From Candidatus Curtissbacteria bacterium (GTDB lineage: Bacteria; Patescibacteriota; Microgenomatia; Curtissbacterales; GWA2-41-24): 64,000 bases of DNA. The DNA lies in the NCBI GenBank assembly GCA_030647775.1, contig JAUSJC010000010.1, positions 72,718-136,717 on the forward strand. Direction: 5' to 3'. The notes beneath the pieces are model-generated. The model had not been told where the DNA came from and made no database searches. It saw only the letters and a program-made list of their open reading frames with translations. Below, piece after piece: positions 7,439 to 60,277 of this stretch. The position numbers and the translations under genes are program-made. Within the stretch, counting starts at the first letter, position 1. Every line of letters begins with the position of its first letter.

Positions 7439-7512
7439 AACTGACACTTGTGTCATCCCGAACTTGTTTCGGGATCTATTTTGATTCAGGATCTTTCCGA
7501 CAATTATATATT
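7439..7512. repeat. Palindromic MITE-like element, GTCATCCYGAAC...GTTCRGGATGAC family (hairpin GATCCCGAAACAAGTTCGGGATGAC)
   Basis: Nearly identical copies at 21639-21748 and 63624-63716; related copies at 17803-17858, 19381-19415, 8281-8372, 49161-49258, 52521-52608, 31332-31394, 25245-25309. Confidence 0.85.
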
Positions 7513-7600: not shown

Positions 7601-7615
7601 TGTACAATATAAGTA

Positions 7616-8182
7616 ATGCAAAAAGGTTTCATCGGTCCGACAATTGTCGTACTCATCGGCATTCTTGCCCTAGCTGGTCTAATTGGTCTTGCCTTTTACC
7701 TCGGCAAAAAATCCACCGGCCCAACAGCGACAACCCCTGTTGCCCAGCAAGATGAAACTACAAATTGGAAAACATACACAAGTCAAGTAACCCAGGTGGA
7801 ACTTAAATTGCCACAAGATTGGACAGAACGCCAAGAAGGCAAAACGCTTTTCTTGAAAGACAAGAAAAGCACGAGTGAGATTACAATTGTAAAAGATTTT
7901 GAAGGAGGTTTTGGGAGCAACTTGGAAGAGGCAAGGGATCCAAGGGAGATTACAATAGGCGGACAAAAAGCAACTATATATTATTATCACTCTGCCGACA
8001 ATTTTGCTGTTCTTCTTGGTGAATCCGGAACCCCAGTAGTAGATAGGGAGAACATATTTTCCAACATCTTTATCGAAAGAGGACAAGGAAACTATTTAAT
8101 TTTGGGAATGTGGAAGGCAACAGATCAGGATGCAGAAATATTACTTAACCAAATCCTCTCCACCTTCAAATTCACAAACTAG
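7616..8182 (+). CDS. Secreted/membrane-anchored protein, paralog A of a 3-member family (N-terminal signal anchor, ...GKKSTGPTATTPV..NWKTYT.. core, C-terminal QILSTFKFT)
   Basis: 188 aa; paralogs at 17882-18553 and 18698-19243 share N- and C-termini with divergent middle; -10-like element immediately upstream (leaderless-type start). Confidence 0.6.
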   Translation: MQKGFIGPTIVVLIGILALAGLIGLAFYLGKKSTGPTATTPVAQQDETTNWKTYTSQVTQVELKLPQDWTERQEGKTLFLKDKKSTSEITIVKDFEGGFGSNLEEARDPREITIGGQKATIYYYHSADNFAVLLGESGTPVVDRENIFSNIFIERGQGNYLILGMWKATDQDAEILLNQILSTFKFTN

Positions 8183-8374: not shown

Positions 8375-10717
8375 CTAGTGCCCGGGGCTAGGTGAGGGTG
8401 ATGGCGAAGGTGAAGGCGGCGGCGCGCAAGATCCGCAGAAATTCTGCTTAGAATAAGGATCAACAATTACAAACTCTTCCCGCTCTTCGGCGTTTGGCGC
8501 GCCAGCCGCAACAATTTTGTTCGTTACTTTATCTACCCAAACTTTGGCTCGCACAGCAGTCGTTGTTGTCGGTTGGGTTCCGGTCAGGAAATATTCAAAA
8601 CGGCTTGGACATCCGCCGGTAACCGGGCCGCCCGTAAAAGTGCAAATTTGCGCTCCGACAACGCCGGAAGGTACCCTTAATGCTTCATTAACCTTATCTT
8701 TCAAAACAGATTTCATAATATCATTCCAAATCGGCGCGGCACCGGTTATTCCGGATGCCAGGTATTGGCTCATCGGGTGGTTATCGTTATTACCAACCCA
8801 CGTAACTACCAGAAAGCTTGGCGTGTAGCCGATTGTCCAGTTATCACGCTTGTCATCTGTCGTTCCGGTTTTAACGGCCACCGTTTTACCCGGAATTGTC
8901 AAACCGCTGAATGGCCCGAAGGCTGCCGACCTTGCGCCGTTATCCGAAAGTATTGAGGAGATTAAAAACGAAACTTCGCGCGAAAGGACTCTCTTGCCGG
9001 CCTTTGGCTTAAACTCTTCTAGAACTCGGCCATTGGAATCTTCAACTTTTAAAATCGGGGTTAAGTCTTGCCGTACGCCGTCATTGGCAAAAACCCCAAA
9101 GGCCGTTGCCATTTCTGTCATCTTTACTTCACCGCCGCCTAGTGTCAGTGAAAGTCCGTAGCGCGAGGGGTCAGTAAACGTTGTAATCCCCATTTCTCTT
9201 GCCATTTTGATCATATCCTCGACTCCCGAAATTGCCAGCACCTTAACGGCTGGAATGTTATACGAATTGGCAAGGGCAAACCGTACCTGTACCGGGCCGT
9301 GGTATTGCCCGTCGTAATTGACCGGAGTGTAGGGTTTTGTGCCGGCCACGCCAAATGTCGTCGATACATCCATAATCACCGTTGCCGGCGTTATCAACTT
9401 TTTGGAAAGTGCTGTTGCATAATTAATTGGCTTTATTGAAGAACCCGGTTGACGACTGGCAATCGTTACGTTCACATTTCCATCTATCTTCTCGTCAAAA
9501 AAATCTTTCGAACCGACCATTGCCAAAATCTCTCCGGTTGCCGGCCTTGTCACCAGTGCCGCGCCATTAGAAACATCCAGATATTTTACCGCCTCGATAT
9601 TTTTGGCAACCGCCGCTTCGGCTGAAGCCTCGATACCCAAATCTAAAGTTGTCGTTACCTTGAGTCCTCCGTGGGTTGCCACCGCGTCGCCATACTTTTG
9701 TGAAAGCCAGTCTCTTACATACATCACAAAATGCGGCGCTTTTATATCGACCGCCGAGCGTCTAAATTTCAACTCCTCGCCAGCCGCTTTTTCCTCATCC
9801 GCCTTCGTTATATAGTGCTCCTCATACATTCGCGCGAGGACAAACTTTTGCCTTTCAAGCGCCCGCTTTGGGTTTTGCCCGAAAGGTGAATAATAAGTCG
9901 GCGCCGCCGGAAGCCCCGCAAGAAGCGCCGATTCGGCCAAATCCAAATCCTTCAGATCTTTACCAAAATACTGTTGGGCCGCCGCCGATACTCCCCAGGC
10001 CGTTCCGCCATAAGGCACCTGGTTTAAGTACATCTCCAAAATCTTGTCCTTGGAAAACGCTGTTTCTACCCTAAATGCCAAATAAAGTTCCTTAATTTTT
10101 CTGGAAACTGTCCGCTCCGGTGAAAGGAACACACTCTTAACAAGTTGTTGGGTAATTGTCGATCCGCCTTGTACATTCCCCTGAAAAAGCGTTGCCCGCG
10201 CCGCGCGTATTATGCCGTAAACATCAAACCCGCGGTGTTTGTAGAAATCCTTGTCCTCCGTGGCAATCGTCGCCTTCTTTAAATTTTCGGGAACCGCCGA
10301 AAGCGAAACGATTGTCCGGTTCTGGTCCTCGTAAACGTTAAATAAAATCTTACCGTTCCTATCAAAGATTCTTGTCGTTTGCGGAATTTGTCGTGTTTCC
10401 AACTGTTTCGGACTTGGCAAATCACGTGTCAAAAACCAAACACCAAAGACAAGCAGTGCGATGGTCAAAATCCCGACTTTAAAGCTGCGGTCCTTGTAAA
10501 TAAGCGGATGGTGGCCGATCCGGACGAATATTTGCGCTTTCTTGGAAAGGTCGATGTGTACCTTTTCAAAAGCCAGCTCAATACTGTGGGAAATTGACCT
10601 GAAAATCCAAATGGTAACGTCTCCAAAAAAGCTGACCAGGAGAATAAACCAGGTCAGAAAAGAAATGACCGTACCAAAGATTAAGGAGATTAACTTGGCA
10701 AGGGGATTAAAATTCAT
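8375..10717 (-). CDS. Class A penicillin-binding protein (PBP1A; transglycosylase + transpeptidase)
   Basis: EDKDFYKHRGFD / TITQQLVK glycosyltransferase motifs; SSIKP (SxxK), KTGTT transpeptidase motifs; C-terminal (PS)5 repeat. Confidence 0.9.
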   Translation of the reverse strand: MNFNPLAKLISLIFGTVISFLTWFILLVSFFGDVTIWIFRSISHSIELAFEKVHIDLSKKAQIFVRIGHHPLIYKDRSFKVGILTIALLVFGVWFLTRDLPSPKQLETRQIPQTTRIFDRNGKILFNVYEDQNRTIVSLSAVPENLKKATIATEDKDFYKHRGFDVYGIIRAARATLFQGNVQGGSTITQQLVKSVFLSPERTVSRKIKELYLAFRVETAFSKDKILEMYLNQVPYGGTAWGVSAAAQQYFGKDLKDLDLAESALLAGLPAAPTYYSPFGQNPKRALERQKFVLARMYEEHYITKADEEKAAGEELKFRRSAVDIKAPHFVMYVRDWLSQKYGDAVATHGGLKVTTTLDLGIEASAEAAVAKNIEAVKYLDVSNGAALVTRPATGEILAMVGSKDFFDEKIDGNVNVTIASRQPGSSIKPINYATALSKKLITPATVIMDVSTTFGVAGTKPYTPVNYDGQYHGPVQVRFALANSYNIPAVKVLAISGVEDMIKMAREMGITTFTDPSRYGLSLTLGGGEVKMTEMATAFGVFANDGVRQDLTPILKVEDSNGRVLEEFKPKAGKRVLSREVSFLISSILSDNGARSAAFGPFSGLTIPGKTVAVKTGTTDDKRDNWTIGYTPSFLVVTWVGNNDNHPMSQYLASGITGAAPIWNDIMKSVLKDKVNEALRVPSGVVGAQICTFTGGPVTGGCPSRFEYFLTGTQPTTTTAVRAKVWVDKVTNKIVAAGAPNAEEREEFVIVDPYSKQNFCGSCAPPPSPSPSPSPSPGH

Positions 10718-10815
10718 TGAAGCAAGTATAAGCGAAATTCTACCTTAATAAAACCCTTTTTCAAGATGTAAAATTATTTGACAGCAGTATCCCGACGCCT
10801 TAAACTCGCATATAT

Positions 10816-12820: not shown

Positions 12821-12925
12821 CATTGCGAGCGACCTGCCTGCCGGCAAGGCAGGAGCGAAGCAATCTCAAACAAGAAAGATTGCTTCGTCGCCCTGAGCGA
12901 AGTCGAAGGGCTCCTCGCAATGACA
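12821..12925. repeat. Composite palindromic element GTCATTGCGAG-[CCTGCCTGCCGGCAAGGCAGG]-GAGCGAAGCAATCTC...GATTGCTTCG-[CCCTGAGCGAAGTCGAAGGG]-CTCCTCGCAATGAC
   Basis: Outer inverted repeat GTCATTGCGAG/CTCGCAATGAC; related copies 17745-17800, 48601-48690, 19721-19803. Confidence 0.8.
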
Positions 12926-12979: not shown

Positions 12980-13984
12980 ATGACTCCCCAAACAACCATC
13001 TTCATCATCGCTGCATTGGTTATTGTGTCTTTTGCAGCCTTGTATCTCCAAATTAAAAAACTCAGCGAGCCGAAACAAAAGGACGAGACAACCGACCTTT
13101 TGATGAAACTCATCAAACAAATTCAGGAATCTTCAGATAAAACCACCCAGATGACGCAAAAACAGCTGGCCGAAACGACCCGCTCACTCAATGAACGTTT
13201 AGATAAGGCCGCGCAGGTTATCTCCGGCGTTTCCAAATCCGTCGGCGAAATGACCGAACTCGGCCGCAGCATGAAAGACCTCCAGGAATTTTTGCGCTCG
13301 CCCAAAATGCGCGGACAAATGGGGGAGGCAGTCTTAAAAGATATGCTGGGTCAAGCCCTACCAAAGCAAAATTTCCACCTGCAATACGCTTTTAAATCCG
13401 GTGAAATTGTCGATGCCGCCCTAAAGCTCGAGCAGGGGATAATCCCGATCGACGCCAAATTCCCGATGGAAAATTTCCGCAAAATGGCCAAAACCGATGA
13501 CGAAAAAGAAAGGGAAGCAATAAGGAAACTTTTTATTGGCGACGTCAAAAAACATATCGACGCCATTTCCAGCAAGTACATTCGTCCCCAAGAAGGCACT
13601 TTGGATTTTGCGCTAATGTATATTCCGGCAGAACCCGTTTACTACGAAATCCTAACTAACTCGCCGGAGTTGGACGAATACGCTTACCAAAAACGCGTTC
13701 GTCCCGTATCACCCAATACTTTATACGCCTATCTGCGCGCCATCATCATGTCACTCGAAGGATCAAAGATAGAAGCCCAAGCGGGGCAAATCCTGGCGGC
13801 GCTTCGCGAAATCGGTGCCGAAACAAATAAGTTTGGAGAATCTTTGGCGCTTTTAACCAAACACATTAAAAACGCTTCCGCCACCACCGATGACGTCAAC
13901 ACCCGTTTTTCGCGCCTGTCTTCCCGTATTTCCTCTGTCCAGTCAATCGAAGCCAAGAAAGTAAAAGTATTAAAAGAAAAGTGA
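12980..13984 (+). CDS. rmuC: DNA recombination protein RmuC
   Basis: N-terminal TM, long coiled coil, conserved DFALMYIPAEPVYYE region typical of RmuC. Confidence 0.7.
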   Translation: MTPQTTIFIIAALVIVSFAALYLQIKKLSEPKQKDETTDLLMKLIKQIQESSDKTTQMTQKQLAETTRSLNERLDKAAQVISGVSKSVGEMTELGRSMKDLQEFLRSPKMRGQMGEAVLKDMLGQALPKQNFHLQYAFKSGEIVDAALKLEQGIIPIDAKFPMENFRKMAKTDDEKEREAIRKLFIGDVKKHIDAISSKYIRPQEGTLDFALMYIPAEPVYYEILTNSPELDEYAYQKRVRPVSPNTLYAYLRAIIMSLEGSKIEAQAGQILAALREIGAETNKFGESLALLTKHIKNASATTDDVNTRFSRLSSRISSVQSIEAKKVKVLKEK

Positions 13985-14687: not shown

Positions 14688-17600
14688 GTGTCCAGTGTTC
14701 TCAAAGATTTAAATCCCGAACAACTTAAAGCCGTAACCACGACCGTTGGCCCGCTACTTATAATCGCCGGGGCCGGAACCGGCAAAACCGCCGTCATCGC
14801 TCACAGGATCGCCGCGATTATCGAAAAAAAACTGGCCAAGCCCTCCGAAATTCTGGCGCTAACATTTACCGACAAAGCCGCCGGCGAAATGGAAGAGCGC
14901 GTCGACATTTTAGTCCCTTACGGTTTTATCGATACCTGGATTTCTACCTTCCACGCTTTTGGCGACAGGATCCTGCGCGACAACGCCCTGGATATTGGCC
15001 TGACCCCCGATTTCAAAGTCCTTTCCCGCCCCCAGCAGGTTTTATTTTTCCAGCAAAACCTCTTTCGTTTTCAACTCGATTATTTCCGCCCGCTTTCCAA
15101 CCCCACCAAATTTATCTCCTCCATTCTTTCTTTTTTCTCCCGCTTAAAAGACGAAAACGTCAGCCCTGAGGAATTTCGGAAGTACGCTAAACGACTAATG
15201 ACCAGCGCCAAAGATCAAGAATCGAAAATCGAGGCCAAGAAGTACCAAGAGCTTGCTCAAGCCTTTGAATCTTACGAACGTTTCAAAGAAGAAGCCGGTT
15301 TTTTGGATTTTGGCGATCAGGTTGTTAAAGCAATTGAGCTATTTAAAAAGCGCCCCAAAATTCTGGCAAATTACCAAGACCAGTTTAAATATATTTTGGT
15401 TGACGAATATCAGGACACCAACTTTGCCCAAAACGAATTGGTTAAACTATTGGCCGCCCGCCACAAAAACATTTGCGTCGTCGGCGACGATGACCAATCA
15501 ATTTACAAATTCCGCGGCGCGGCAATTTCCAATATTTTGGAATTTAAAAAAACTTTCCCAAAAGCCGTGCAGGTTGTCCTTACCCAAAACTACCGTTCCA
15601 CCCAGGCAATTTTGGACAGCGCTTATAAATTGATCCGCCACAACGACCCGGATCGCTTGGAAGTCCAAAATAAAATCGACAAAAAATTGAAATCAACTGG
15701 CGGCCAGGGTATTCCGCCGCAGGAAATTTTTGCCGACACTATTTCCGAAGAAGCCGACGCGGTCGCCGGCGAAATCGAAAAGTTAATGGCAAAAAGCGTT
15801 AGTCGTTCGCCTGCCTTGCCGGCCGGCAGGTCGTTAGTCGTTAGTCGATATTCATACCGCGACTTTGCCATTCTGGTCCGCGCCAACTCCCAGGCCGATC
15901 ATTTTCTGCGGGCCCTAAACATGAAAGGCATTCCCCATAAGTTTGTCGGTTCATCCGGTCTTTACCAGCAGCCCGAGGTCAATCTTCTGATTTCTTTTCT
16001 AACTGCCATTTCTAACTTTGAAGATAGTCTGAACCTTTTTAACCTCATGACTTCCGAAATTTACGAAATGCCGGCTATCGACGCCATCAAATTAACTTCC
16101 TGGGCCAAACGTAAAAACCGTTCGCTTTTTTATATCCTTAAGAGTTTAGGGTCCGACCCTCAACCAAAAAAAGATGAAGCGTTTGAAAAGGGTCGGACCC
16201 TTGACGGCTTGGATATTTCCGGCGAATCAAAAGCCGTTGTCGAAAAACTGATTGAAGACCTAAAAGAATCAATCGAACTTTCCAAATCCCAAACTGCCGG
16301 CCGTGTGCTCTACAAATTCCTGGAAGGTGCCGGTTATCTCAAAAAGCTGGAACGTCAAAATGGAGTAGATTCTCAAATCAAAATCCAAAACATCGCCAAG
16401 TTTTTCGATAAAGTCAAAGAATTTGAAAACGTCGCCAGCCCGACATCGCCTAACGGCTCAGCGTTTGGCGGGCGGGCCAAAGTCCACACCGTTTCCCAGT
16501 TTGTCGATTATCTGGAAGCAATCCGCGGTGCCGGCGACGACCCGGCGACAGTGGAATTTGACCCGGAGACGGATGCCGTCAATGTCATGACCGTTCACGG
16601 GGCCAAAGGTCTGGAATTTCCGGTAGTTTTTATGGTCAACCTTGTTGCCGACCGTTTTCCGGTCCGTTCCCGCTCCGACGCCATCGAGGTTCCCCAAGGT
16701 CTCATTCGCGAAACTTTGCCGCAAGGAGATTGGCACCTACAGGAAGAGCGCCGCCTTTTTTATGTCGGGGCCACCCGCGCCAAAAATCTTCTCTATTTTT
16801 CCTGGTCCCGTGATGTCGGCGGCTTGCGCGCCAAGAAAATCTCCCCGTTTGTTTTGGAAGTTCTCGACAAAGCCAAATCAACAGCCGACCTTATAAAACT
16901 TTCACCGCTTGAAAAAATCGAAAAATTCGCCCCCGCCCCTCCGCGTACGACTCAACAAGTCATGTTCGATGTCGATGTCCTAAAGCTCACCCAGGGGTCA
17001 ATCGATGATTACTTAACGTGCGCCTACAAATACCGCTATATCCACATCTTGCGCATTCCCATTCTCCGCCACCACGCCATTGCCTACGGCGCGGCTCTTC
17101 ACAGTGCCGTCGGTGCTTTTCTGACATCTAAGAAAAATGGCCGCATGCTGACCATTGCCCAAACTCTGGAAGTTTTTGAAAACGCTTGGGATAGCGAAGG
17201 ATTTTTGACAATCGAACATGAAGAAAAAAGAAAAGCCGCCGGTAAACTGGCGCTGGAAAGTTTATGGAAACGCGAATCAAAAGACCCTAAACTGCCGACT
17301 CTTATCGAATCAAAATTTAATTTTTCGTTAAAAGAAGTAACAATAGTTGGCCGTTTTGATCGGGTCGATATCGGGCCCGGATCCAAAGTTCACATCATTG
17401 ATTACAAATCCTCCGAAAATATGGATCAGGAAAAGGCAAACGCCCAAGCCAAGCAGTCAAATCAATTGGCAATCTACGCTCTTTATTACTGGAAGCGCCA
17501 CAAAATTATTCCCGAAAAGTTAACGCTCCACTTTTTAGAAAACGGGGTAGAGGGAAGTTACACACCAACCGAAAAGGATTTGGAAAAAGTTGAAAAATTA

Positions 17601-17741
17601 ATACTCGATACCGCCGAAAACATCCGCGCCGACAGCAAAAATAATGCTTTTGCCGCCAAACCCAAGTATTTCGGCCGCGAACCGGCTTGTGTCTACTGTG
17701 CATACAACACAATCTGTCCATTCTCTCTGGCCAAAGTCTAA
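14688..17741 (+). CDS. UvrD/PcrA-family SF1 helicase fused to C-terminal PD-(D/E)xK nuclease with Cys-cluster (AddA/AdnB-like helicase-nuclease)
   Basis: Walker A AGAGTGKT, motifs through VHGAKGLEFP...; C-terminal ...CAYKYRYIHIL...IIDYKSS...CVYCAYNTICPF; contains in-frame repeat-derived segments at 15810-15830 and 16147-16206. Confidence 0.8.
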   Translation: MSSVLKDLNPEQLKAVTTTVGPLLIIAGAGTGKTAVIAHRIAAIIEKKLAKPSEILALTFTDKAAGEMEERVDILVPYGFIDTWISTFHAFGDRILRDNALDIGLTPDFKVLSRPQQVLFFQQNLFRFQLDYFRPLSNPTKFISSILSFFSRLKDENVSPEEFRKYAKRLMTSAKDQESKIEAKKYQELAQAFESYERFKEEAGFLDFGDQVVKAIELFKKRPKILANYQDQFKYILVDEYQDTNFAQNELVKLLAARHKNICVVGDDDQSIYKFRGAAISNILEFKKTFPKAVQVVLTQNYRSTQAILDSAYKLIRHNDPDRLEVQNKIDKKLKSTGGQGIPPQEIFADTISEEADAVAGEIEKLMAKSVSRSPALPAGRSLVVSRYSYRDFAILVRANSQADHFLRALNMKGIPHKFVGSSGLYQQPEVNLLISFLTAISNFEDSLNLFNLMTSEIYEMPAIDAIKLTSWAKRKNRSLFYILKSLGSDPQPKKDEAFEKGRTLDGLDISGESKAVVEKLIEDLKESIELSKSQTAGRVLYKFLEGAGYLKKLERQNGVDSQIKIQNIAKFFDKVKEFENVASPTSPNGSAFGGRAKVHTVSQFVDYLEAIRGAGDDPATVEFDPETDAVNVMTVHGAKGLEFPVVFMVNLVADRFPVRSRSDAIEVPQGLIRETLPQGDWHLQEERRLFYVGATRAKNLLYFSWSRDVGGLRAKKISPFVLEVLDKAKSTADLIKLSPLEKIEKFAPAPPRTTQQVMFDVDVLKLTQGSIDDYLTCAYKYRYIHILRIPILRHHAIAYGAALHSAVGAFLTSKKNGRMLTIAQTLEVFENAWDSEGFLTIEHEEKRKAAGKLALESLWKRESKDPKLPTLIESKFNFSLKEVTIVGRFDRVDIGPGSKVHIIDYKSSENMDQEKANAQAKQSNQLAIYALYYWKRHKIIPEKLTLHFLENGVEGSYTPTEKDLEKVEKLILDTAENIRADSKNNAFAAKPKYFGREPACVYCAYNTICPFSLAKV

Positions 17742-17858: not shown

Positions 17859-17881
17859 AACAGTTGTATAATCAATTCACA

Positions 17882-18553
17882 ATGCAAAAACGCGGAATTA
17901 TCCTCCCACTAATCCTTATCGCAATACTCGCCATTGCCGGTTTAATCGCCCTCGGAATCTCTATTGGCAAAAAATCCTCCGGCCCAACAGCGACAAATCC
18001 GGTTGTTACAGTTCAAGCCTCACCCGTTCCATCTCCATCTCCAGATGAAACTGCAAATTGGAAAACATACACCAATAATCTTGTAAAGTTCTCTCTCAAG
18101 CTTCCGACGGATATAGAAGTAGTAGGAATAGGTATAGGGCCACCAGCGGCAATTGATGCAAGCGAAGTCATAATTTGTAGAGGTTGCAATAATTCCGTAG
18201 ACCCAGCAAAGACGCCTCTAATCTATATCCGGACGACTGAACTAAAATACACAATTTTCAAAGACATGGCTTTTTCTGGTATCGTGAAACAAAATTATGA
18301 TGCCAACATTGCCAATAAAAATAGCACCAAATCCGTTATTAAGCCACTGCAACAAATTACTTTTGCAGGAGAGCCGGCCTTTACTTATACTTTGGATAGC
18401 TCAGGCTACAGTGGCAAATATGACGGCTTTACGACTTATTCAGGCATAAACAAAATCATTGAGGTTCAACGTAATGGAATCTTTTATGTTTTTATTTATG
18501 TGCAAGATTCGACTTTTGACCAAATCCTCTCCACCTTCAGGTTCACGCAATAG
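17882..18553 (+). CDS. Secreted/membrane-anchored protein, paralog B (contains SPSPSP linker)
   Basis: Starts MQKRGIILPL...; TTGTATAAT 10 nt upstream suggests leaderless start (ORF track start 17864 is TTG inside the -10 box); C-terminal QILSTFRFTQ. Confidence 0.6.
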   Translation: MQKRGIILPLILIAILAIAGLIALGISIGKKSSGPTATNPVVTVQASPVPSPSPDETANWKTYTNNLVKFSLKLPTDIEVVGIGIGPPAAIDASEVIICRGCNNSVDPAKTPLIYIRTTELKYTIFKDMAFSGIVKQNYDANIANKNSTKSVIKPLQQITFAGEPAFTYTLDSSGYSGKYDGFTTYSGINKIIEVQRNGIFYVFIYVQDSTFDQILSTFRFTQ

Positions 18554-18555
18554 AG

Positions 18556-18660
18556 ATTGCTTCGCTTAGAGTTTCCGACTTCGCTCGCAATGACATAATT
18601 AGTTAGTTCTCGACTCGTTCTGCAATGCAGAACTTGCTCGAACAATATTGTTCGACTTTA
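18556..18660. repeat. Composite repeat (GAGATTGCTTCGCTTAG..CTCGCAATGAC + TTAGTTCTCGACTCGTTCTGCAATGCAGAACTTGCTCGAACAATA)
   Basis: Near-identical copy at 19246-19330 (tandem duplication of gene+repeat). Confidence 0.85.
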
Positions 18661-18697
18661 TGGAGAACCTCCTCTATAAAAGTGCTATCATAAATCA

Positions 18698-19243
18698 ATG
18701 TCCAAACACGGCTTCGTTGGCCCTGCAGTTGTCATCTTAGTTGCTCTCATTTCAATCGCCGGTTTAATCGCTCTTGGAATCTACATAGGCAAAAAATCCT
18801 CCGGCCCAAAGGCAACAAATCCGGTTGTTACAGTTCAAACCTCACCCGTTCCATCTTCTGATGAAACCGAAAATTGGAAGACATACACTATGAAAGATGT
18901 AAAAATCACTTTCAAATATCCCCCAGATTGGAAAATGAGTGAATACCCGGTAAACCAAAGTGGCAATTATAGTGCTCAATTTAATGGTAAAGAAGGCCGC
19001 ATAGACCTTATCTGGGGTGGAGAAGGCTATGGAGGAGCATGTCCCGGGGGATATGAAAAAATAAATTTTCTTAGTAAGAATCAAGATGTTTGTCGCTCAA
19101 TTCAGCCAAACGGCTCAGAGATTATAGGAATACTTTCGGCAACACCTGATAACACACCATTCGATATAGGCCTTACGAGTAATTCTAAGGAAAACAATGA
19201 TTTAATGCAGCAAATCCTTTCCACCTTCAAATTCACAAAGTAG
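18698..19243 (+). CDS. Secreted/membrane-anchored protein, paralog C
   Basis: 181 aa; shares N-terminal anchor, GKKSSGPKATNPVVTVQTSPVPS and C-terminal QQILSTFKFTK with paralog B. Confidence 0.6.
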   Translation: MSKHGFVGPAVVILVALISIAGLIALGIYIGKKSSGPKATNPVVTVQTSPVPSSDETENWKTYTMKDVKITFKYPPDWKMSEYPVNQSGNYSAQFNGKEGRIDLIWGGEGYGGACPGGYEKINFLSKNQDVCRSIQPNGSEIIGILSATPDNTPFDIGLTSNSKENNDLMQQILSTFKFTK

Positions 19244-19418
19244 AGATTGCTTCGCTTAGCTCGCAATGACATAATTAGTTAGTTCTCGACTCGTTCTGCA
19301 ATGCAGAACTCGCTCGAACAATATAGTTCGACCTTGCCTGCCCGTCAAAACTTTAGTGTCGTCGGGTGGAGAACTTCCAATTGACTAGATTCTGAAACAA
19401 GTTCAGAATGACAGGAAT

Positions 19419-26240: not shown

Positions 26241-26275
26241 GGCTAGTTTACTAGCCCCATGGCACTGTATATAAT
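26241..26275 (+). promoter_or_regulatory. Consensus-like sigma70 promoter module CTAGTTTACTAG-CCCATGGCACTGTA-TATAAT (palindrome over -35)
   Basis: -35 TTTACT, 17-nt spacer, -10 TATAAT at 26270-26275; ATG of trxA at 26283 (leaderless). Confidence 0.6.
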
Positions 26276-26282
26276 TACAGCT

Positions 26283-35048: not shown

Positions 35049-35051
35049 TCT

Positions 35052-35672
35052 ATGAAAAACGATATGCCCAAAACCAAATCTAACAAAACGGCCGAAGGCC
35101 CTGAGCAAAGTCGAAGGGACCAAAAACACGTCGAAGACCTTGAGCGCAGTCGAAGGGCCGAAGACCCTGAGCAAAGTCGAAGGGCCGCAGGTCATGAGAA
35201 TGATCGAATGGAGCTCGAAAACCGGCTCAAGCGTGCCCTTGCCGATTACCAGAATCTGGAGCGCCGTGTAGAAGAAGAGCGCAGGCTTTTGGGTCAACTT
35301 TCGTCAGCTCTTTTGATCGAGAAATTTTTGCCGGTTTTGGATAATCTGGAAAACGCCCAAAAACATTTGAACGACGAGGGCCTGGAAATTGTCATCCGTC
35401 AATTTAAAGATATTCTGTCTTCCGAAGGTGTTGAAGAAATCGAGTCCGTTGGTGCTGCTTTTGACCCTCATCAGCACGAAGCAGCCGAAGTCCAGGAAGG
35501 CGAAAACGACAATACAGTTGTCAAAGTCTTGCGTAAAGGTTATAAAATGAATGATAAGGTTCTTCGACCTGCCCAAGTTGTTGTCGAGAAAAAATCCGCC
35601 GGCGACAGCCAATCAGACAGTCTTGGTCAGGGAGTAAAAGAAGAGGAGGTTAATTATTCTTCGAGCGAGTGA
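35052..35672 (+). CDS. grpE: Nucleotide exchange factor GrpE with repeat-derived N-terminal extension
   Basis: LKRALADYQNLERRVEEERR core; N-terminus contains three tandem ~21-nt units (35099-35186) encoding PEQSRRD/LERSRRA/PEQSRRA. Confidence 0.85.
   Translation: MKNDMPKTKSNKTAEGPEQSRRDQKHVEDLERSRRAEDPEQSRRAAGHENDRMELENRLKRALADYQNLERRVEEERRLLGQLSSALLIEKFLPVLDNLENAQKHLNDEGLEIVIRQFKDILSSEGVEEIESVGAAFDPHQHEAAEVQEGENDNTVVKVLRKGYKMNDKVLRPAQVVVEKKSAGDSQSDSLGQGVKEEEVNYSSSE
35099..35186. repeat. Three tandem copies of CCYTGAGCRMAGTCGAAGGGMC inside grpE coding sequence
   Basis: Same unit at 12891-12911, 57298-57318, 48497-48518, 45839-45862, inverted at 35693-35712. Confidence 0.8.
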
Positions 35673-39285: not shown

Positions 39286-39329
39286 CCCCAATTTTCCCGC
39301 CCGAATTTTTTTGGCTTTGATATAATTGC
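39286..39329 (+). promoter_or_regulatory. Cassette boundary/promoter motif copy 1 (degenerate): CCCCAATTTTCCCGCCCGAATTTTTTTGGCTTTGATATAAT
   Basis: Extended -10 TGATATAAT 39318-39326, 6 nt before ATG 39333. Confidence 0.6.
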
Positions 39330-39332
39330 TTG

Positions 39333-39659
39333 ATGCAAACAAAAATTATTTTGACAACCTCTACACTTATCATCGTATCTTTGCTTGTCGGTGCATTTTA
39401 TTGGTTTGTATCGAGACCTCAAGAGATTAGAAAAAGATGTTACAGTGAAATGTCCAGTTTAAGTGTTGATATTACTAAGCCCCCTAACGAAGCTTCCAGC
39501 TCTGTTTTTACTAGTACTCTCCCGCCACTAAGTAATGTAGGTCAACAAATACTTGAAGGTAAAAAACTAATTACCGATAAAGATAAAAATAATTATTACA
39601 GATCTTGCCTCGTAAAAAATGGACTCAAGCCCGAATCGCTATATGTGAATGTAAATTGA
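39333..39659 (+). CDS. Small membrane-anchored hypothetical protein (cassette 1)
   Basis: ~108 aa, N-terminal TM. Confidence 0.4.
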   Translation: MQTKIILTTSTLIIVSLLVGAFYWFVSRPQEIRKRCYSEMSSLSVDITKPPNEASSSVFTSTLPPLSNVGQQILEGKKLITDKDKNNYYRSCLVKNGLKPESLYVNVN

Positions 39660-39694
39660 GATTCCAATAAGTAAGCACAATTAGAATTTTAGTT

Positions 39695-39720
39695 CCCCAA
39701 ATTCCCCGCTCGATTTTGCT
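39695..39720 (+). promoter_or_regulatory. Cassette boundary motif copy 2 (CCCCAAATTCCCCGCTCGATTTTGCT; -10 part degenerate)
   Basis: Direct reading. Confidence 0.6.
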
Positions 39721-39742
39721 TTGAGTTGTCCCAAAAAGAAGC

Positions 39743-40378
39743 TTAACTGACCAATTCTCTTAGGTCTGGTACTTCTAAAACTTTTCCAAGTTCCCACTCA
39801 TTGCCATTAAAATCAAATCTCGGTATTGAATAAACGCTTCTTTGTCTTGATATTCCCCTAATAATTGGGCCCAAGCGTTGCAAGCTATTAAGCCTATCTT
39901 CGTTTCGTTTTCTGATTTGACCTTCTATTCCAGTATGTGCCGCTCCAATTACCGTTACAAGGTGGTTCAGACCTTCTACGTTTTTCATCAGCCATTCCTC
40001 TTTATGCGCGGTGATAGTTTCCCTGAGTCTTGAAGTTGGTCGAAAGGGCAAAAGGTAAATTTCTGGGAAAGCAATAAAACTCCTAATGCCTAAGTCTGCA
40101 TGATATACAGGGATTCGATACCTTTCCGCGTAATCAAGAACGCTAGAAAATTGCGGAAGAAATAGTCTGCCTAGCCCACTAAAATATTCTGGAAGCTCCT
40201 GTCCATATCTATCGGATGGCCACTCTATAACAAACGCGTCTAAATCGGGGGGAACAAAATCTAAATTTGTCCTTCGGTTGTGAGCACCATACACGATTGT
40301 GTAGACCCCTTCGGGCTTTTCGATTCGAGTAACTTTACTAGGGTCTTCTTGTCTTAAACGTTCATTCATAGCAAAAGT
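39743..40378 (-). CDS. TraB/GumN-like family protein (tentative; cassette 2, inverted)
   Basis: VYGAHN and VIGAAHTGIEG GxxH-type motifs; ORF-track N-terminus (to 40549) is antisense of neighbouring EamA TM region and boundary motif, so start placed at MNERLRQ. Confidence 0.35.
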   Translation of the reverse strand, partial: TFAMNERLRQEDPSKVTRIEKPEGVYTIVYGAHNRRTNLDFVPPDLDAFVIEWPSDRYGQELPEYFSGLGRLFLPQFSSVLDYAERYRIPVYHADLGIRSFIAFPEIYLLPFRPTSRLRETITAHKEEWLMKNVEGLNHLVTVIGAAHTGIEGQIRKRNEDRLNSLQRLGPIIRGISRQRSVYSIPRFDFNGNEWELGKVLEVPDLRELVS

Positions 40379-40417
40379 GGAGTATAACAGGAATAGTGAG
40401 CCAATTTCAACTATAGG

Positions 40418-40456
40418 CCCAAATTCCCCGCTCGATTTCCGTAACTTCTGATATAC
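40418..40456 (+). promoter_or_regulatory. Cassette boundary/promoter motif copy 3 (CCCAAATTCCCCGCTCGATTTCC...TGATATACT)
   Basis: -10-like TGATATACT 40448-40456, ATG 40464. Confidence 0.6.
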
Positions 40457-40463
40457 TTTTCTC

Positions 40464-41312
40464 ATGTCTTGGATCGTATTGGCACTAGCTAGCGTTATAT
40501 TTTTCTCTATTTCCGCGCTGCTCCAAAAAGTCTTGATGAAAAACGACAAAAGCGACCCGTACGCCTATTCCATAATGTTTCAATTCTTAATCTGGGCTGT
40601 GGCGGCAACCGTTGTTCTTTGGACTGGCTTTGTTATGCCCCCCATTAAGACATACCCACTCAATTTCTTGTTTTCGTCTGTTATGTACGGCCTTGGAACC
40701 ATTTGTGCTTTTAAGGCGCTTAAATATATAGAAGCTTCGGAATTCACAATAATAAGCTCTGTAAAAGCTATCGTTACGATTATTTCTGCTGTTTTAATTT
40801 TGGGTGAAGTTTTTGATTACAAAAAGGCACTTGGTACCGCATTGGTTTTAATTTCTGCATATTTAGTTACCCAAAAATCCAGAAAAATAAAGTTCAACAA
40901 AGGCACCCTTTATGCTTTAGGGACTGCGCTGACGTATGGACTCGCTATTACAAACGACACATTTCTACTAAAATATTCTGAAGTATTTTCGTATCTGACA
41001 GTTGGTAATCTAATCACAGTACTTTTTGTGATTGCAATAAAACCCACAGCGGTTAAAAATTTAAACCATTTTTTCGATCTCGCGATTCTTTCCAAAATGC
41101 TTATACTCGGCATCTTATATTCTTTTGGAGCAGTCGCCTTTTATTTGGCAATTCAAAGTGGTGCAGCAGCTTCTCAAATCTCGCCGATTTTGCAGACCTC
41201 TGTAATTGTCACGGTTCTACTCGCAGCCATATTTTTGGGCGAAAGAGACAATTTGGTTAAAAAAATCGCAAGCGCTATATTGGTAACAATTGGAGTAATA
41301 CTAATTAAGTAG
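40464..41312 (+). CDS. EamA/DMT-superfamily transporter (cassette 3)
   Basis: 282 aa, 10 TM, duplicated EamA domains. Confidence 0.7.
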   Translation: MSWIVLALASVIFFSISALLQKVLMKNDKSDPYAYSIMFQFLIWAVAATVVLWTGFVMPPIKTYPLNFLFSSVMYGLGTICAFKALKYIEASEFTIISSVKAIVTIISAVLILGEVFDYKKALGTALVLISAYLVTQKSRKIKFNKGTLYALGTALTYGLAITNDTFLLKYSEVFSYLTVGNLITVLFVIAIKPTAVKNLNHFFDLAILSKMLILGILYSFGAVAFYLAIQSGAAASQISPILQTSVIVTVLLAAIFLGERDNLVKKIASAILVTIGVILIK

Positions 41313-41313
41313 A

Positions 41314-41349
41314 CCCAAATTCCCCGCTCGATTTTTGCCCTGATATAAT
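41314..41349 (+). promoter_or_regulatory. Cassette boundary/promoter motif copy 4 (CCCAAATTCCCCGCTCGATTTTTGCCCTGATATAAT)
   Basis: Extended -10 TGATATAAT 41341-41349; ATG 41356 (leaderless). Confidence 0.65.
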
Positions 41350-41355
41350 CACCTG

Positions 41356-41931
41356 ATGACAAAACTTATTTTTATCACGCATCCCGCCGTCGATGTTGAC
41401 CCCACGATTCCTATTAATCAGTGGCATGTTTCCAAAGATGGACAAAAGCAAATTGACAACCTTTTGACATTGCCCTTTTGGTCGGAAGTAGATGTGATTT
41501 ACTCAAGCCAAGAAGGGAAAGCGCTGAATACCGCGAATAAGATCAAAAGCCATTTTGACCATCTCAAATCTCCGGCACCAGAAGGAACGTTTGATCTGCA
41601 CGAAATAGACAGAAGCGCAACCGGAGTTCTTCCAAAAGACGTATACGATAAAGCGATCGAAGAATTTTACCTGTACCCCAATAAAAGTTATAAAGGATGG
41701 GAAACAGCAAACGCGGCAAAAGAGAGGATTTTTAAAGTTGTAAGCCAAATTATTGATGATAACCCCAATAAAACTGTTGCCATCGTTGGTCATGGGGCCA
41801 CCGGAACACTCTTAGCCTGCCAGATTAAAAAAATCGAACCCTCTTTTGCCGAGGATCCGCACACAAACGGCTGCATTATGGTTTACGATTGGGACGAAAA
41901 GACAATACTTTCGCCCTGGACCAAGTATTAA
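41356..41931 (+). CDS. Histidine-phosphatase superfamily (PGM-like) protein (cassette 4)
   Basis: LIFITHPAV (RHG-position His) and VAIVGHGATG second His motif. Confidence 0.5.
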   Translation: MTKLIFITHPAVDVDPTIPINQWHVSKDGQKQIDNLLTLPFWSEVDVIYSSQEGKALNTANKIKSHFDHLKSPAPEGTFDLHEIDRSATGVLPKDVYDKAIEEFYLYPNKSYKGWETANAAKERIFKVVSQIIDDNPNKTVAIVGHGATGTLLACQIKKIEPSFAEDPHTNGCIMVYDWDEKTILSPWTKY

Positions 41932-41976
41932 AATTCCCCGCTCGATTTTTGGTCCCTTGATGAATTAATGTATAAT
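41931..41976 (+). promoter_or_regulatory. Cassette boundary/promoter motif copy 5 (AAATTCCCCGCTCGATTTTTGGTCCCTTGATGAATTAATGTATAAT)
   Basis: TATAAT 41971-41976 followed by AGGAAAGGA SD-like and ATG 41996. Confidence 0.6.
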
Positions 41977-41995
41977 TTATAGGAAAGGATTTAAT

Positions 41996-42187
41996 ATGTC
42001 TGCAATTGACCTTCGGAAAATCTTAAAAGAGAACAAATCTGGGTGGGTAGCTTTAACTCAAGATAACAAAAAGAAAATAGCGCAAGGTAAAACCCTCAGC
42101 GAAGTACTTAAAAAAGCCAAAGAAAAGGGAATCGAAAAGCCCAGTGTGTTTAAAGTTCCTTCTCTGGGCACTTACTATGTCGGTTAA
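41996..42187 (+). CDS. Small lysine-rich protein (DUF5678-like/antitoxin-like, tentative), translationally coupled to downstream protease (cassette 5)
   Basis: 63 aa; stop overlaps next start (TAATG). Confidence 0.4.
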   Translation: MSAIDLRKILKENKSGWVALTQDNKKKIAQGKTLSEVLKKAKEKGIEKPSVFKVPSLGTYYVG

Positions 42188-42642
42188 TGGATTTCAGCTA
42201 CACAATTGTCACTGACTGGCCTAATCATCAAGTTCGTCAACGCTATCTCCCTTGGATAAATATCGGAATTAAAAAACCTGGCAAAGAAGACACAATTTGG
42301 CCATTGGGACTTGTAGATTCCGGTGCGGAAATAACTATTTTAGATAGAGAAATCGGAGAAGAACTGGGATTTAACTTTAAAAAAGCGGCGAGAGACATAA
42401 TCACCGGTTTTGGTGGGGGTAAAGTAGAAGTGTTTCTTCTGCAAGCGGAATTCGTCATCGATGATAATAGTGGGAAGGAACCTATTATATATAAAGATTT
42501 GTTAGGATTTACAAAAGGCCAATTCCCTCAAACCCATCCACAGCAAACTGCCATATTTGGAACCATAGGTTTATTTAGAAATGCTCAAGTTAATTTTCGG
42601 TATCCGACTAATATTCATATAGAACAATTCAAAGCGAAATAA
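42187..42642 (+). CDS. Retropepsin-like (clan AA) aspartic protease
   Basis: GLVDSGAEITILD contains D-S-G-A catalytic motif; 151 aa size typical of bacterial/archaeal retropepsin-like proteins. Confidence 0.6.
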   Translation: MDFSYTIVTDWPNHQVRQRYLPWINIGIKKPGKEDTIWPLGLVDSGAEITILDREIGEELGFNFKKAARDIITGFGGGKVEVFLLQAEFVIDDNSGKEPIIYKDLLGFTKGQFPQTHPQQTAIFGTIGLFRNAQVNFRYPTNIHIEQFKAK

Positions 42643-42645
42643 TTT

Positions 42646-42689
42646 CCCCCAAATTCCCCGCTCGCGATATTTGCTTTTGATATAATCTC
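42646..42689 (+). promoter_or_regulatory. Cassette boundary/promoter motif copy 6 (CCCCCAAATTCCCCGCTCGCGATATTTGCTTTTGATATAAT)
   Basis: Extended -10 TGATATAAT 42680-42688; ATG 42693. Confidence 0.65.
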
Positions 42690-57520: not shown

Positions 57521-57599
57521 CTGATATTAGTCCAGTTTACTGGACGCATGGTGCTGTATTAGATTTGCTTTTGCAAATCGCATGGCGCTGTATATAATT
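57521..57599 (+). promoter_or_regulatory. alaS promoter region: conserved module CCAGTTTACTGG-ACGCATGGTGCTGTATTAGA, inserted hairpin GATTTGCTTTTGCAAATC, then GCATGGCGCTGTATATAAT
   Basis: -10 TATAAT 57593-57598, ATG 57605; hairpin creates TTGCAA at -35 spacing. Confidence 0.55.
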
Positions 57600-60231: not shown

Positions 60232-60277
60232 CTGATATTAGACCCAGTTTACTGGGCGCATGGCACTGTATATAATT
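60232..60277 (+). promoter_or_regulatory. Conserved promoter module CTGATATTAGACCCAGTTTACTGGGCGCATGGCACTGTATATAAT
   Basis: -35 TTTACT 60248-60253, 17-nt spacer, -10 TATAAT 60271-60276; ATG 60288. Confidence 0.6.

Follow-up and report, generated by a model that had tools for sequence, protein, structure and literature searches.

Three Candidatus Curtissbacteria paralogs with shared ends and diverged middles: probable members of a Patescibacteria-wide family of membrane-anchored PsbP/Mog1-fold proteins

Introduction

How do three proteins of one genome come to share both their ends and no recognisable similarity in between? The question is raised by three genes in a 64-kb stretch of DNA from a Candidatus Curtissbacteria contig, referred to here as the window. 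A first-pass annotation described them as secreted proteins with conserved termini and a hypervariable core, and suggested a surface or antigen-like family under diversifying selection, or modular shuffling of domains by flanking repeats. The explanation that we consider probable is that the genes are diverged paralogs of a family of transmembrane (TM)-anchored PsbP/Mog1-fold proteins found throughout the Patescibacteria, the conserved ends being fold boundaries plus an exchanged anchor, the middle being under purifying selection and the mRNAs probably being leaderless. Each protein would then consist of one N-terminal TM signal-anchor, a Pro/Thr/Ser-rich stalk and an extracytoplasmic domain of ~140-170 aa with a Mog1/PsbP alpha/beta-sandwich (PsbP_2-like).

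Results and Discussion

Three paralogs with common ends

A six-frame motif scan of the window finds exactly three copies of the gene (Table 1). The open reading frames, their coordinates and the alignment all bear out a paralogous family with an N-terminal signal-anchor and shared ends, and the gene 1 protein matches a Candidatus Curtissbacteria MAG protein at 100%. On the N-terminal side the three proteins have in common M-x-K-x-G, the TM helix, GKKS(S/T)GP(T/K)AT(T/N)PV and DET(T/A/E)NWKTYT, and at the C-terminus QILSTF(K/R)FT. Their middles (107-149 aa) do differ as strongly as had been claimed: BLASTP finds no significant similarity between any two of them (best E 0.06). Genes 2 and 3 stand in tandem, and the downstream repeat is duplicated as well (81 nt at 95% identity), as the annotation had it; gene 1 lies 10 kb away and has lower DNA identity. 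The mechanical open reading frame of gene 2 runs from TTG 17864. However, ATG 17882 is preferred as the start, since it lines up with the other two starts, whereas the TTG and the -10 box overlap.

Table 1. The three genes and associated features, in positions of the window.
Feature	Positions	Strand	Remarks
Gene 1 (Q7S45_02850)	7616-8182	+	188 aa (ORF list); TM anchor at residues 8-30, then Pro/Thr linker, then predicted PsbP/Mog1-fold domain at residues ~51-188
Gene 1, -10-like hexamer TACAAT	7603-7608	+	7 nt before ATG, no Shine-Dalgarno (SD) sequence; putative leaderless promoter
Gene 1, TM signal-anchor helix	7637-7705	+	Residues 8-30, GKKS next; from AF2 helix and alignment
Gene 1, 3' flank repeat unit TTAGTTCTCGACTC...TTCGCTCGAATAATAA	8183-8238	+	Related units follow genes 2 and 3
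Gene 2 (Q7S45_02890)	17882-18553	+	223 aa; architecture as gene 1
Gene 2, -10 hexamer TATAAT	17867-17872	+	9 nt before ATG; overlaps the alternative TTG start 17864
Gene 2, shared 5' tract	17933-18034	+	TM end and linker; 102 nt, 90% DNA identity to the gene 3 copy
Gene 2, 3' flank (gene 3 upstream region)	18554-18659	+	Composite of small palindromes including GTTCTGCAATGCAGAAC and TCGAACAATATTGTTCGA
Gene 3 (Q7S45_02895)	18698-19243	+	181 aa; architecture as gene 1, domain shorter, 2 Cys
Gene 3, extended -10-like TGcTATCAT	18683-18691	+	6 nt before ATG
Gene 3, shared 5' tract	18755-18856	+	Counterpart of the gene 2 tract
Gene 3, 3' flank	19244-19335	+	Duplicate of the gene 2 flank

Membership of a large Patescibacteria family

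The three proteins are new members of a known but uncharacterised family of Patescibacteria (CPR), on which no literature was found. Their own matches to Pfam PsbP_2 (PF18933) are marginal: 22.7 bits (E 1.1e-4) for gene 1 and 20.4 bits (E 5.5e-4) for gene 3, both under the gathering score of 27, and no match for gene 2. The gene 1 match begins inside the TM helix (residues 15-78, profile positions 3-71). Relatives make the connection at full length. PF18933 is matched by 41 of 64 aligned relatives at E<=0.01 (best E 5.5e-10), and alignments covering 99-100% of gene 1 link it to five bona fide members that carry precomputed PF18933 matches (P0003, P0009, P0011, P0013 and P0016); such matches are on record for many homologs. 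The gene 2 family includes P0060 (98% coverage, PF18933), and 7 of 18 gene 2 relatives match PsbP_2. Compared with each other, the family profiles give hhalign probabilities of 99.9-100%. The gene 2 middle by itself is related to the gene 1 family (hhalign E 8e-5), while the gene 3 middle has no profile similarity to the middles of the other genes and no close sequence relative among 5.8 billion proteins. Genes 1-3 have the same architecture as PF18933 proteins but are sub-threshold or unmatched, and they belong to more divergent Microgenomates subgroups. The PsbP profile proper (PF01789) is matched by none of the three at E<=1 and weakly by 4 of the 64 relatives, and NCBIfam gave no meaningful matches for the three proteins.

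The family is not peculiar to this genome. A profile search returned 53,122 cluster representatives at E<=1e-3 (25,902 at E<=1e-10), many of which carry 2-6 matched stretches, and with more than 50,000 such representatives the PsbP/Mog1-fold domain ranks with the most expanded extracytoplasmic domains in Patescibacteria. At least 600 stretches of the form [DN][QKL]ILSTFKF are present in GTDB species genomes of Microgenomates and Parcubacteria lineages, and clustering is common, with two or more motif-bearing ORFs at 34 of 80 loci.

The conserved ends as boundaries of a fold

The AF2 model of gene 1 (mean pLDDT 83.6) has the N-terminal hairpin, antiparallel sheet and C-terminal helix of a Mog1/PsbP-like fold. 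Its best Foldseek match in the PDB is PsbP (1v2b, E 4.7e-6), with Mog1, Tsi3, Apa, LpqN, DcrB and EagT6 also among the matches, and all 29 PDB chains at E<=1e-3 have this fold (PsbP, Mog1, Tsi3, Apa, BT_1490; target-normalised TM-scores 0.35-0.67). The gene 3 model is of moderate confidence (pLDDT 75), and as it was built from the pooled family alignment it may be biased towards the family fold; its strands and helices come in the same order as in gene 1, and its best matches are PsbP (6kac_P) and CyanoP (2lnj), with a weak E of 2e-3. As modelled, the cores of genes 1 and 3 probably share one PsbP/Mog1 fold. Structure prediction had been proposed by the annotation as a check, and the result fits ordinary diverged paralogs, the outcome that it had named as a refutation.

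In this fold the domain opens with NWKTYT as its first beta-strand, and (D/N)QILSTFKF makes up the C-terminal helix plus the last strand. Across 22 diverse homologs with an overall identity of only 25-37% both motifs are invariant, and in the alignment of 64 relatives they are nearly so. In multi-domain relatives, which carry 2-6 domains in tandem, every domain opens with xWKTY and closes with ILSTFKF. The motifs are thus the domain's own first and last elements, recurring at every internal domain boundary, rather than a scaffold that presents a variable domain, and the apparent pattern of conserved ends around a hypervariable core is explained by the ends being boundary elements of the domain. 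One of two origins of the conserved ends would accordingly be these family-wide hallmarks, which bracket every domain copy, and the middle would be the remainder of an old fold, diverged from paralog to paralog but not hypervariable. A role of ILSTFKF as a C-terminal sorting signal was considered and rejected, as it also occurs internally, closing each domain of the multi-domain relatives, and C-terminal extensions follow it in some relatives.

Purifying selection on the gene 2 middle

A surface-antigen-like family, whose conserved termini scaffold a hypervariable core under diversifying selection, would be in keeping with middles that cannot be aligned pairwise, with an isolated gene 3 domain, with probable surface exposure and with the expansion and clustering of the family in many genomes. 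However, the supposedly variable domain of gene 2 is 55-71% identical to those of its orthologs P0036-P0039, and the dN/dS comparison with P0037 (72% identical) gave dN 0.18, dS ~1.9 and omega ~0.10. This value indicates that the gene 2 middle is under purifying selection within its orthologous lineage. For gene 2 the claim of a hypervariable core is largely refuted, and for genes 1 and 3 it is opposed by the probable single fold of the modelled cores. The hallmark motifs, moreover, are integral to that fold and recur inside multi-domain proteins. A diversifying or contingency surface antigen would be expected to have a nonsynonymous excess or donor cassettes; omega as measured on the gene 2 domain gives no such excess, and no second copy of any middle that could serve as a template or cassette is present in the 64-kb window. 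We regard diversifying selection on a surface antigen as very unlikely. The locus of one gene 2 ortholog (L081) has different neighbours, an ABC ATPase and a DUF5667 protein.

Separate histories of anchor and domain

The unusual feature of these genes is their mosaicism. The idea that recombination has shaped them holds up, as the identities of anchor and domain are incongruent. Against P0036-39, the gene 2 domain is 55-71% identical and the anchor 31-39%; against gene 3, P0040, P0043 and P0095, the anchor is 68-75% identical and the domain 24-29%. The same incongruence is visible in the DNA comparison. In the 5' tract shared by genes 2 and 3 (Table 1), 30 of 33 codons agree in the amino acid and no more than 4 differ synonymously; dS is 0.25 as against ~1.9 between orthologs. 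Given the incongruent relatives, the 90% identity and the low dS, the tract is probably the product of a recent gene conversion between the two neighbours. The second origin of the conserved ends would thus be a TM/linker module swapped between paralogs by recombination or gene conversion. Exchange of this kind makes the TM and linker look conserved within a genome, although they diverge freely between orthologs. As a by-product of the analysis, anchor and domain emerge as modules with clearly separate histories, brought about by gene conversion or recombination.

A stronger version holds that shuffling is programmed or recurrent, the coding blocks for NWKTYT and ILSTFKF, the palindromic repeats, or both, acting as recombination sites at which domain bodies are swapped for surface variation, between a promoter-plus-anchor module and a 3' end that both stay fixed. 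Besides the incongruence, it can draw on the 30-nt WKTYT block, which is 83-97% identical between copies, on DNA identity that falls abruptly past this block and resumes at the ILSTFKF codons and 3' flank, and on P0043, which combines a promoter and anchor like those of gene 2 with a different domain. However, no more than ordinary gene conversion between tandem paralogs is needed to account for these data, and amino-acid constraint plus codon preference may account for the identity of the block, the same codons being common in other genomes. Gene 1, with its distance and lower DNA identity, fits recurrent shuffling poorly, and no recombinase, silent cassette array or inverted-repeat switch adjoins the genes.

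The repeats themselves also argue against such a role. Genes 2 and 3 share 81 nt at 95% in their duplicated 3' flanks (18579-18659 and 19255-19335) and a further 49 nt at 88% across the stop codon. The flanking repeats are members of repeat families that are dispersed, mostly between genes, and occur at unrelated loci as well. A family-specific nature of the repeats was rejected, as GTTCTGCATTGCAGAAC and GTCATYCYGAAC...GRATC recur at, for example, 48620, 58360, 21661, 31333, 52526 and 63646. The three 3' flanks fold no better than shuffled sequences (z -0.06 to -1.6, the gene 1 flank having -1.6), and no intrinsic terminators were found in the 3' repeats on the + strand at the gene ends. A census of perfect hairpins in the window was uninformative. 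Programmed cassette shuffling is unlikely. An equally doubtful proposal is a recombination-driven surface-binding repertoire of CPR bacteria, in which a promoter-plus-anchor module, possibly with a Glu-less class III signal processed by prepilin peptidase, is re-joined to PsbP-fold bodies through the WKTYT and ILSTFKF blocks. If true, it would provide episymbionts with a variable array of proteins that bind the host or the envelope.

Anchor and topology

Under the preferred reading, diverged paralogs with an exchanged anchor, the domain would be extracytoplasmic. The hydrophobic helix of ~23 aa (AF2 residues 8-30) is directly followed by Lys-Lys, and no AxA-type site can be read from the sequence, which favours an uncleaved signal-anchor. 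With balanced charges on the two sides of the TM helix (K+R 1.57 before, 1.61 after), the positive-inside rule favours neither orientation. A reversed orientation, with the short N-terminus outside and the PsbP-like domain tethered to the cytoplasmic side of the membrane, where it would work, like Mog1 or EagT6, as a chaperone or adaptor, would agree with these charges, with the Lys-Lys and with the two named proteins, both cytoplasmic, being among the fold matches. The number of Cys after the TM helix, with its strong even parity, speaks in the other direction: of 223 family proteins, 160 have an even number, 11 an odd one and 52 none. The family also has features typical of surface proteins, namely Pro/Thr/Ser stalks, Cys-rich C-terminal extensions and strings of domains, and most fold matches are extracytoplasmic (PsbP, Apa, LpqN, DcrB, Tsi3, MTC28). 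The reversed orientation is thus highly improbable, and the family proteins are likely on the cell surface.

The N-terminus could also be read as a class III (prepilin-type) signal, M-x-K-G-F being cut by prepilin peptidase after the Gly, with display on or association with the type IV pilus machinery. In 55 of 64 members [KRQ]-[GA]-[FILQYVM] occurs within the first 45 residues, typically as M-Q-K-G-F at 2-6 residues from the start and followed by ~20 hydrophobic residues, and conservation of Gly4 reaches at least 90%. Class III signals also occur in archaeal sugar-binding proteins, which are not pilins. However, the sequence M-Q-K-G-F-I-G-P-T lacks a Glu at +5, there is no Pfam N_methyl match at E<=1, and the helix ends at GKKS and gives way to a Pro/Thr linker instead of continuing as a pilin alpha1 helix. 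The proteins accordingly have none of the type IV pilin-like features (G|F-T-L-I-E N-methylation motif, Glu+5, continuous alpha1), and no pilin or peptidase gene was seen adjoining them. A class III signal has as slim a chance as the reversed orientation.

Comparison with known proteins of the fold

PsbP and CyanoP (PF01789), known as an extrinsic photosystem II subunit and the best Foldseek matches of both models, have the same alpha/beta-sandwich with an N-terminal hairpin, a central antiparallel sheet and a C-terminal helix, and as lumenal proteins they too are extracytoplasmic binding proteins. However, sequence identity to them is only 9-14%, and they are soluble whereas the proteins of genes 1-3 have a TM helix and a stalk. 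Neither PF01789 nor the photosystem II context of PsbP proper is found here: the host is a Curtissbacteria MAG, and the ORFs at 6.5-20.5 kb include no recognisable photosystem genes. To our knowledge, CPR bacteria are non-photosynthetic.

The actinobacterial envelope proteins LpqN, Apa and MTC28 also have the fold (5zx9, E 5.6e-5; 6e5d, E 1.5e-3; 4ol4, E 7e-2) and Pro-rich segments, and in monoderm-type envelopes they act as non-enzymatic proteins, either secreted or tethered to the membrane. They differ in having a lipobox or a cleaved signal peptide in place of a signal-anchor, and have no sequence similarity to the family and no WKTY or ILSTFKF. The proteobacterial DUF1795 proteins DcrB, Tsi3 and EagT6/SciW share this fold class and do their work by binding to partner proteins. 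However, the similarity is at the level of the fold only, and their compartment or setting is another one, that of T6SS immunity proteins and chaperones or of a periplasmic lipoprotein; at 6.5-20.5 kb no ORF is recognisable as a T6SS gene. By analogy with the characterised proteins PsbP, LpqN, Apa, DcrB and Tsi3, the domains may serve for binding or as adaptors, with no enzymatic activity. A stalk would hold them on the outer side of the membrane, and their ligands, in the envelope or on partners, would differ from paralog to paralog. The likely position on the surface of host-attached organisms makes the family a reasonable target for structural and interaction studies.

Translation starts and leaderless promoters

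The annotation also proposed a leaderless promoter derived from a repeat, and the two parts of this claim fared differently. A leaderless start is plausible, as each of the three genes has a -10-like box 6-9 nt before its ATG and no SD sequence. A repeat origin is not borne out: the -10 boxes lie outside the palindromic units, the flanking repeats are dispersed, and the same arrangement occurs across the genome, a -10-like box being present 4-9 nt before the first ATG in 11 of 48 genes, genes 1-3 among them, as against 2.9% of all ATGs. AGTTGTAYAAT has only two occurrences in the window, upstream of genes 1 and 2, and AATGCAAAAA, the other part of the upstream homology, amounts to the start codon plus Gln-Lys codons. 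GGAG or GAGG is present at -18 to -5 in none of the 48 genes, and a scan of gene starts found no canonical -35/-10 promoters, all boxes being of the -10 or extended -10 type. In other genomes, too, members of the family have similar TGnTAnnnT boxes, 6-8 nt before the ATG.

With a -10 box of their own this close to the ATG and no SD sequence, genes 1-3 are probably transcribed as leaderless mRNAs, as are many genes of this genome. The counts in the window suggest that this Curtissbacterium starts translation largely without Shine-Dalgarno sequences, often from leaderless transcripts; no literature on initiation signals in these lineages was found. Starts of this kind matter for gene calling in CPR bacteria. 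The relative P0043 has its box and start arranged as in gene 2, and its called ORF opens with MYNQVTMQKRG; like TTG 17864 of gene 2, this start has seemingly been over-extended through the -10 box.

Three paralogs with common ends and differing middles

Three paralogous genes (see table) encode proteins that, in the protein alignment, share an M-x-K-x-G start followed by a hydrophobic helix, the linker GKKS(S/T)GP(T/K)AT(T/N)PV, a DET(T/A/E)NWKTYT block and a C-terminal QILSTF(K/R)FT. In a six-frame scan of the 64 kb, the motifs occur in these genes only. The mechanical ORF of gene 2 begins at TTG 17864, which is overlapped by a TATAAT box, and ATG 17882 aligns with the starts of genes 1 and 3. 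BLASTP finds no significant match between any two of the intervening segments (107-149 aa; best E-value 0.06). Genes 2 and 3 are adjacent and carry duplicated sequence at their 3' ends, 81 nt at 95% in the flank and a second stretch of 49 nt at 88% that crosses the stop codon. Thus, ORFs, alignment, motif scan and flank duplication confirm what the first-pass annotation had described: paralogs with shared ends and strongly differing middles, two in tandem with a duplicated downstream repeat. The products are 100% identical to the hypothetical proteins Q7S45_02850, Q7S45_02890 and Q7S45_02895, respectively, encoded on a 526,960-bp contig of a Candidatus Curtissbacteria MAG (Microgenomates, Patescibacteria/CPR).

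Coordinates of the three genes and of the -10-like boxes preceding them
Feature	Position	Strand	Remark
Gene 1	7616-8182	+	ORF, 188 aa
Gene 1 box, TACAAT	7603-7608	+	7 nt to ATG
Gene 2	17882-18553	+	ORF, 223 aa
Gene 2 box, TATAAT	17867-17872	+	9 nt to ATG
Gene 3	18698-19243	+	ORF, 181 aa
Gene 3 box, TGcTATCAT	18683-18691	+	6 nt to ATG

Judged by their translations rather than by annotation hits, the neighbours of gene 1 are a Met-tRNA-synthetase-like and a penicillin-binding-protein-like ORF, and genes 2 and 3 are flanked by a UvrD-like helicase ORF and a small methyltransferase-looking ORF. An ortholog of gene 2 has neighbours unlike these, and genomic context gives no functional clue. In a relative's locus, L081 (1331-2128), the gene 2 ortholog P0037 is immediately preceded by genes for a DUF5667 (PF18915) protein and an ABC ATPase, a context that is absent from the window.

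The conserved motifs bound a predicted Mog1/PsbP-type domain

Homologs covering the full length of gene 1 are numerous, at 25-34% identity. When 22 of these are aligned, only T48, N50, W51, T53, Y54, T55, P66 and L181-F186 are invariant; T48-T55 form the T-x-NW-x-TYT core of the ETxNWKTYT block, where K52 is near-invariant, and L181-F186 is LSTFKF, preceded by a near-invariant I180. In the gene 2 family alignment, W, K, S and T of both motifs are invariant, and T57, P75 and both Phe of STFxF near-invariant. In a pooled alignment of 64 sequences, W51 is invariant and N50, K52, T53, Y54 and I180-F186 (except K185) are near-invariant. A profile of the pooled alignment matched 53,122 of 1.84 billion cluster representatives at E<=1e-3 (25,902 at E<=1e-10, 2,041 at E<=1e-30), the best matches being mostly longer proteins with two to six matched stretches, each covering approximately profile positions 62-217. 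In multi-domain relatives (e.g. P0096, P0101 and P0103), every domain opens with xWKTY and closes with ILSTFKF, which makes the motifs part of the domain itself. This recurrence rules them out as N- and C-terminal signals, and it runs against the earlier suggestion that the termini are a scaffold around a variable insert.

In GTDB species genomes, the pattern [DN][QKL]ILSTFKF occurs in at least 600 stretches. Among the matches listed are 80 loci (~4.5 kb each) from Daviesbacteria, Woesebacteria, Levybacteria, Roizmanbacteria, Gottesmanbacteria, Blackburnbacteria and several Parcubacteria lineages, and as 34 of these carry two or more motif-bearing ORFs, clustering of the family is common.

With Pfam, PsbP_2 (PF18933) is matched below its gathering score of 27 by gene 1 (22.7 bits) and gene 3 (20.4 bits) and is not matched by gene 2; it is matched by 41 of the 64 relatives (best E 5.5e-10), including 7 of the 18 that make up the gene 2 alignment. 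From the pooled alignment, AlphaFold2 gives gene 1 (mean pLDDT 83.6) a TM helix (residues 8-30), a disordered linker, and a domain of nine strands with one short helix, a C-terminal helix (171-182) and a last short strand. Foldseek matches this model to 29 PDB chains at E<=1e-3, every one a Mog1/PsbP fold, including PsbP (1v2b, E 4.7e-6), CyanoP, Mog1, Tsi3, Apa and BT_1490, with LpqN, DcrB, EagT6 and MTC28 next in the list. The gene 3 model (pLDDT 75) has the same order of elements, although it also rests on the pooled alignment, which may pull it towards the family fold; its best matches, PsbP and CyanoP, reach only E 2e-3. The models show genes 1 and 3 with a predicted Mog1/PsbP fold. Middle-only profiles link the gene 1 and gene 2 families (hhalign, E 8e-5 over 46 columns surrounding an 'I-t-i-x-G-x-x-A' strand pair), and in the same comparison the gene 3 middle is linked to neither. 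With membership established at the superfamily level, genes 1-3 join, as new members, a PsbP_2-like family of Mog1/PsbP fold that is known but uncharacterised.

Anchor and domain have different histories

Gene 2 and its orthologs from other metagenomes (P0036-P0039) are 55-71% identical in the domain and 31-39% in the anchor and linker, whereas gene 2 versus gene 3, P0040, P0043 and P0095 gives 24-29% and 68-75%, respectively. At the DNA level, gene 2 matches L081 in the domain only (73% over 512 nt), and gene 3 and the relatives' loci L083-L086 in the anchor only (72-84%). The tracts 17933-18034 (gene 2) and 18755-18856 (gene 3) are 90% identical, with the same residue in 30 of 33 codons and only four synonymous differences (dS 0.25); the two genes differ in the first 17 codons and everywhere past WKTYT. 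Gene 1 has the same kind of pattern, with 66-74% identity to P0003 and P0002 in the anchor and 25-30% in the domain. The simplest reading of these sequences is gene conversion or recombination between paralogs, which would homogenise the 5' module and possibly also the short 3' block and flank. The incongruence in genes 1 and 2 thus gives a kernel of support to the proposed modular shuffling, but the exchange shows no link with the flanking repeats and no sign of a dedicated mechanism. Domain-boundary motifs together with intragenomic exchange of the anchor module account for the conserved-ends pattern.

A hypervariable core under diversifying selection, also proposed earlier, is not what gene 2 presents: divergence from one ortholog (dN 0.18, dS ~1.9, omega ~0.10 against the L081 DNA) indicates strong purifying selection on its domain. 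A repeat search of the window found no second copy of any middle segment that could be a donor cassette or template.

Predicted topology

The hydrophobic helix (~23 residues), followed by Lys-Lys, looks like an uncleaved signal-anchor. Charges flanking it are balanced, and the positive-inside rule therefore gives no orientation. Of 223 family proteins with an N-terminal TM, 160 have an even number of cysteines past the TM, 11 an odd number and 52 none, a strong sequence signature of disulfides. Genes 2 and 3 have two cysteines each and gene 1 none. The even parity in the family, Pro/Thr/Ser stalks and the Cys-rich C-terminal extensions of some relatives together place the domain, by prediction, outside the cell. 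By analogy with PsbP, LpqN, Apa, DcrB and Tsi3, the proteins may act on the membrane's outer face as binding modules held on stalks, without enzymatic activity, each paralog having its own partners.

The family N-terminus, M-Q-K-G-F-A-P-I-L-I-L-V-G-I-L, is strongly conserved (Gly >=90%, family alignment A5), its counterparts here being encoded at 7616-7640, 17882-17905 and 18698-18725. It resembles a class III (prepilin) signal in M-Q-K-G-F but is without Glu+5, and the window has no gene for a GFTLIE-type pilin.

Gene starts and dispersed repeats

No SD precedes genes 1-3, and none of the 48 long ORFs in the window has GGAG or GAGG at -18 to -5. A TATAAT-like box, often TGnTATAAT, lies 4-9 nt before the first ATG in 11 of the 48, against 2.9% of all ATGs, with a peak at 6-7 nt. 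Genes whose starts look SD-free, and often leaderless, are for example those at 12980, 14688, 39321, 40452, 41344, 42681 and 57563 (+) and 650-1996 and 8375-10744 (-). Family members in other genomes have a TGnTAnnnT box 6-8 nt before the ATG. Box-near-ATG, SD-free starts are thus the rule of this genome, not a family trait. Of the repeat-derived leaderless promoters proposed earlier, leaderless transcription is plausible from the close boxes and missing SD; the repeat derivation is unsupported, since the boxes lie outside the palindromic units, which belong to dispersed families present at many unrelated sites (e.g. GTTCTGCATTGCAGAAC, GTCATYCYGAACTTGTTTCRGRATC and TTAGTTCTCGAC...GCTCGAACAATA). 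No intrinsic terminators were found at genes 1-3, whose 3' flanks fold no better than shuffled sequence. What remains new is the recombination signal, the class III-like N-terminus without Glu+5, and genes that appear to start without an SD and, often, without a leader.

In this family, gene prediction seems to place starts too far upstream, so that the -10 box is taken in as coding sequence: P0043 (locus L084) starts MYNQVTMQKRG and the window ORF from TTG 17864 starts LYNQFTMQKRG, where, for the window ORF, 'YN' is the TATAAT box itself read as codons.

The window holds at least 60 short dispersed repeat families, mostly intergenic hairpin units, among them GTCATYCYGAACTTGTTTCRGRATC and its partner CTAGATYCTGAAACAAGTTCAGRATGACA (families D4-D6), with sites at 7452, 17804, 21661, 31333, 52526, 63646 and many others. 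The intergenic palindromic unit CTTGCCGGCMGGCAGGTCG also occurs in frame at 15815-15835 (cf. 12828-12848) inside the UvrD-like ORF (14688-17741), where it encodes ...SPALPAGRSLVV... and leaves the ORF open. Three overlapping copies of a GC-rich 49-nt repeat (..GAAGGGCCGAAGACCCTGAGCAAAGTCGAAGG.., D1) occupy 35085-35199 in the ORF 35049-35672, and others lie at 45850, 48483 and 57284. CCCAAATTCCCCGCTCGATTTT (D7, D10, D18) lies upstream of successive genes (six copies in 39287-42669, plus 43435 and 44276). For at least three of the genes (39321, 41344, 42681), a TTTGATATAAT-type box comes next, 6 nt from the ATG. The motif may be an operator or promoter module that these genes share. A conserved 30-nt module ending in a -10 box, TTTACTGGGCGCATGGCACTGTATATAATT (D14, D15), is found at 26247-26276, 57536-57565, 57570-57599 and 60248-60277, upstream of at least two large genes (57563 and 60276).
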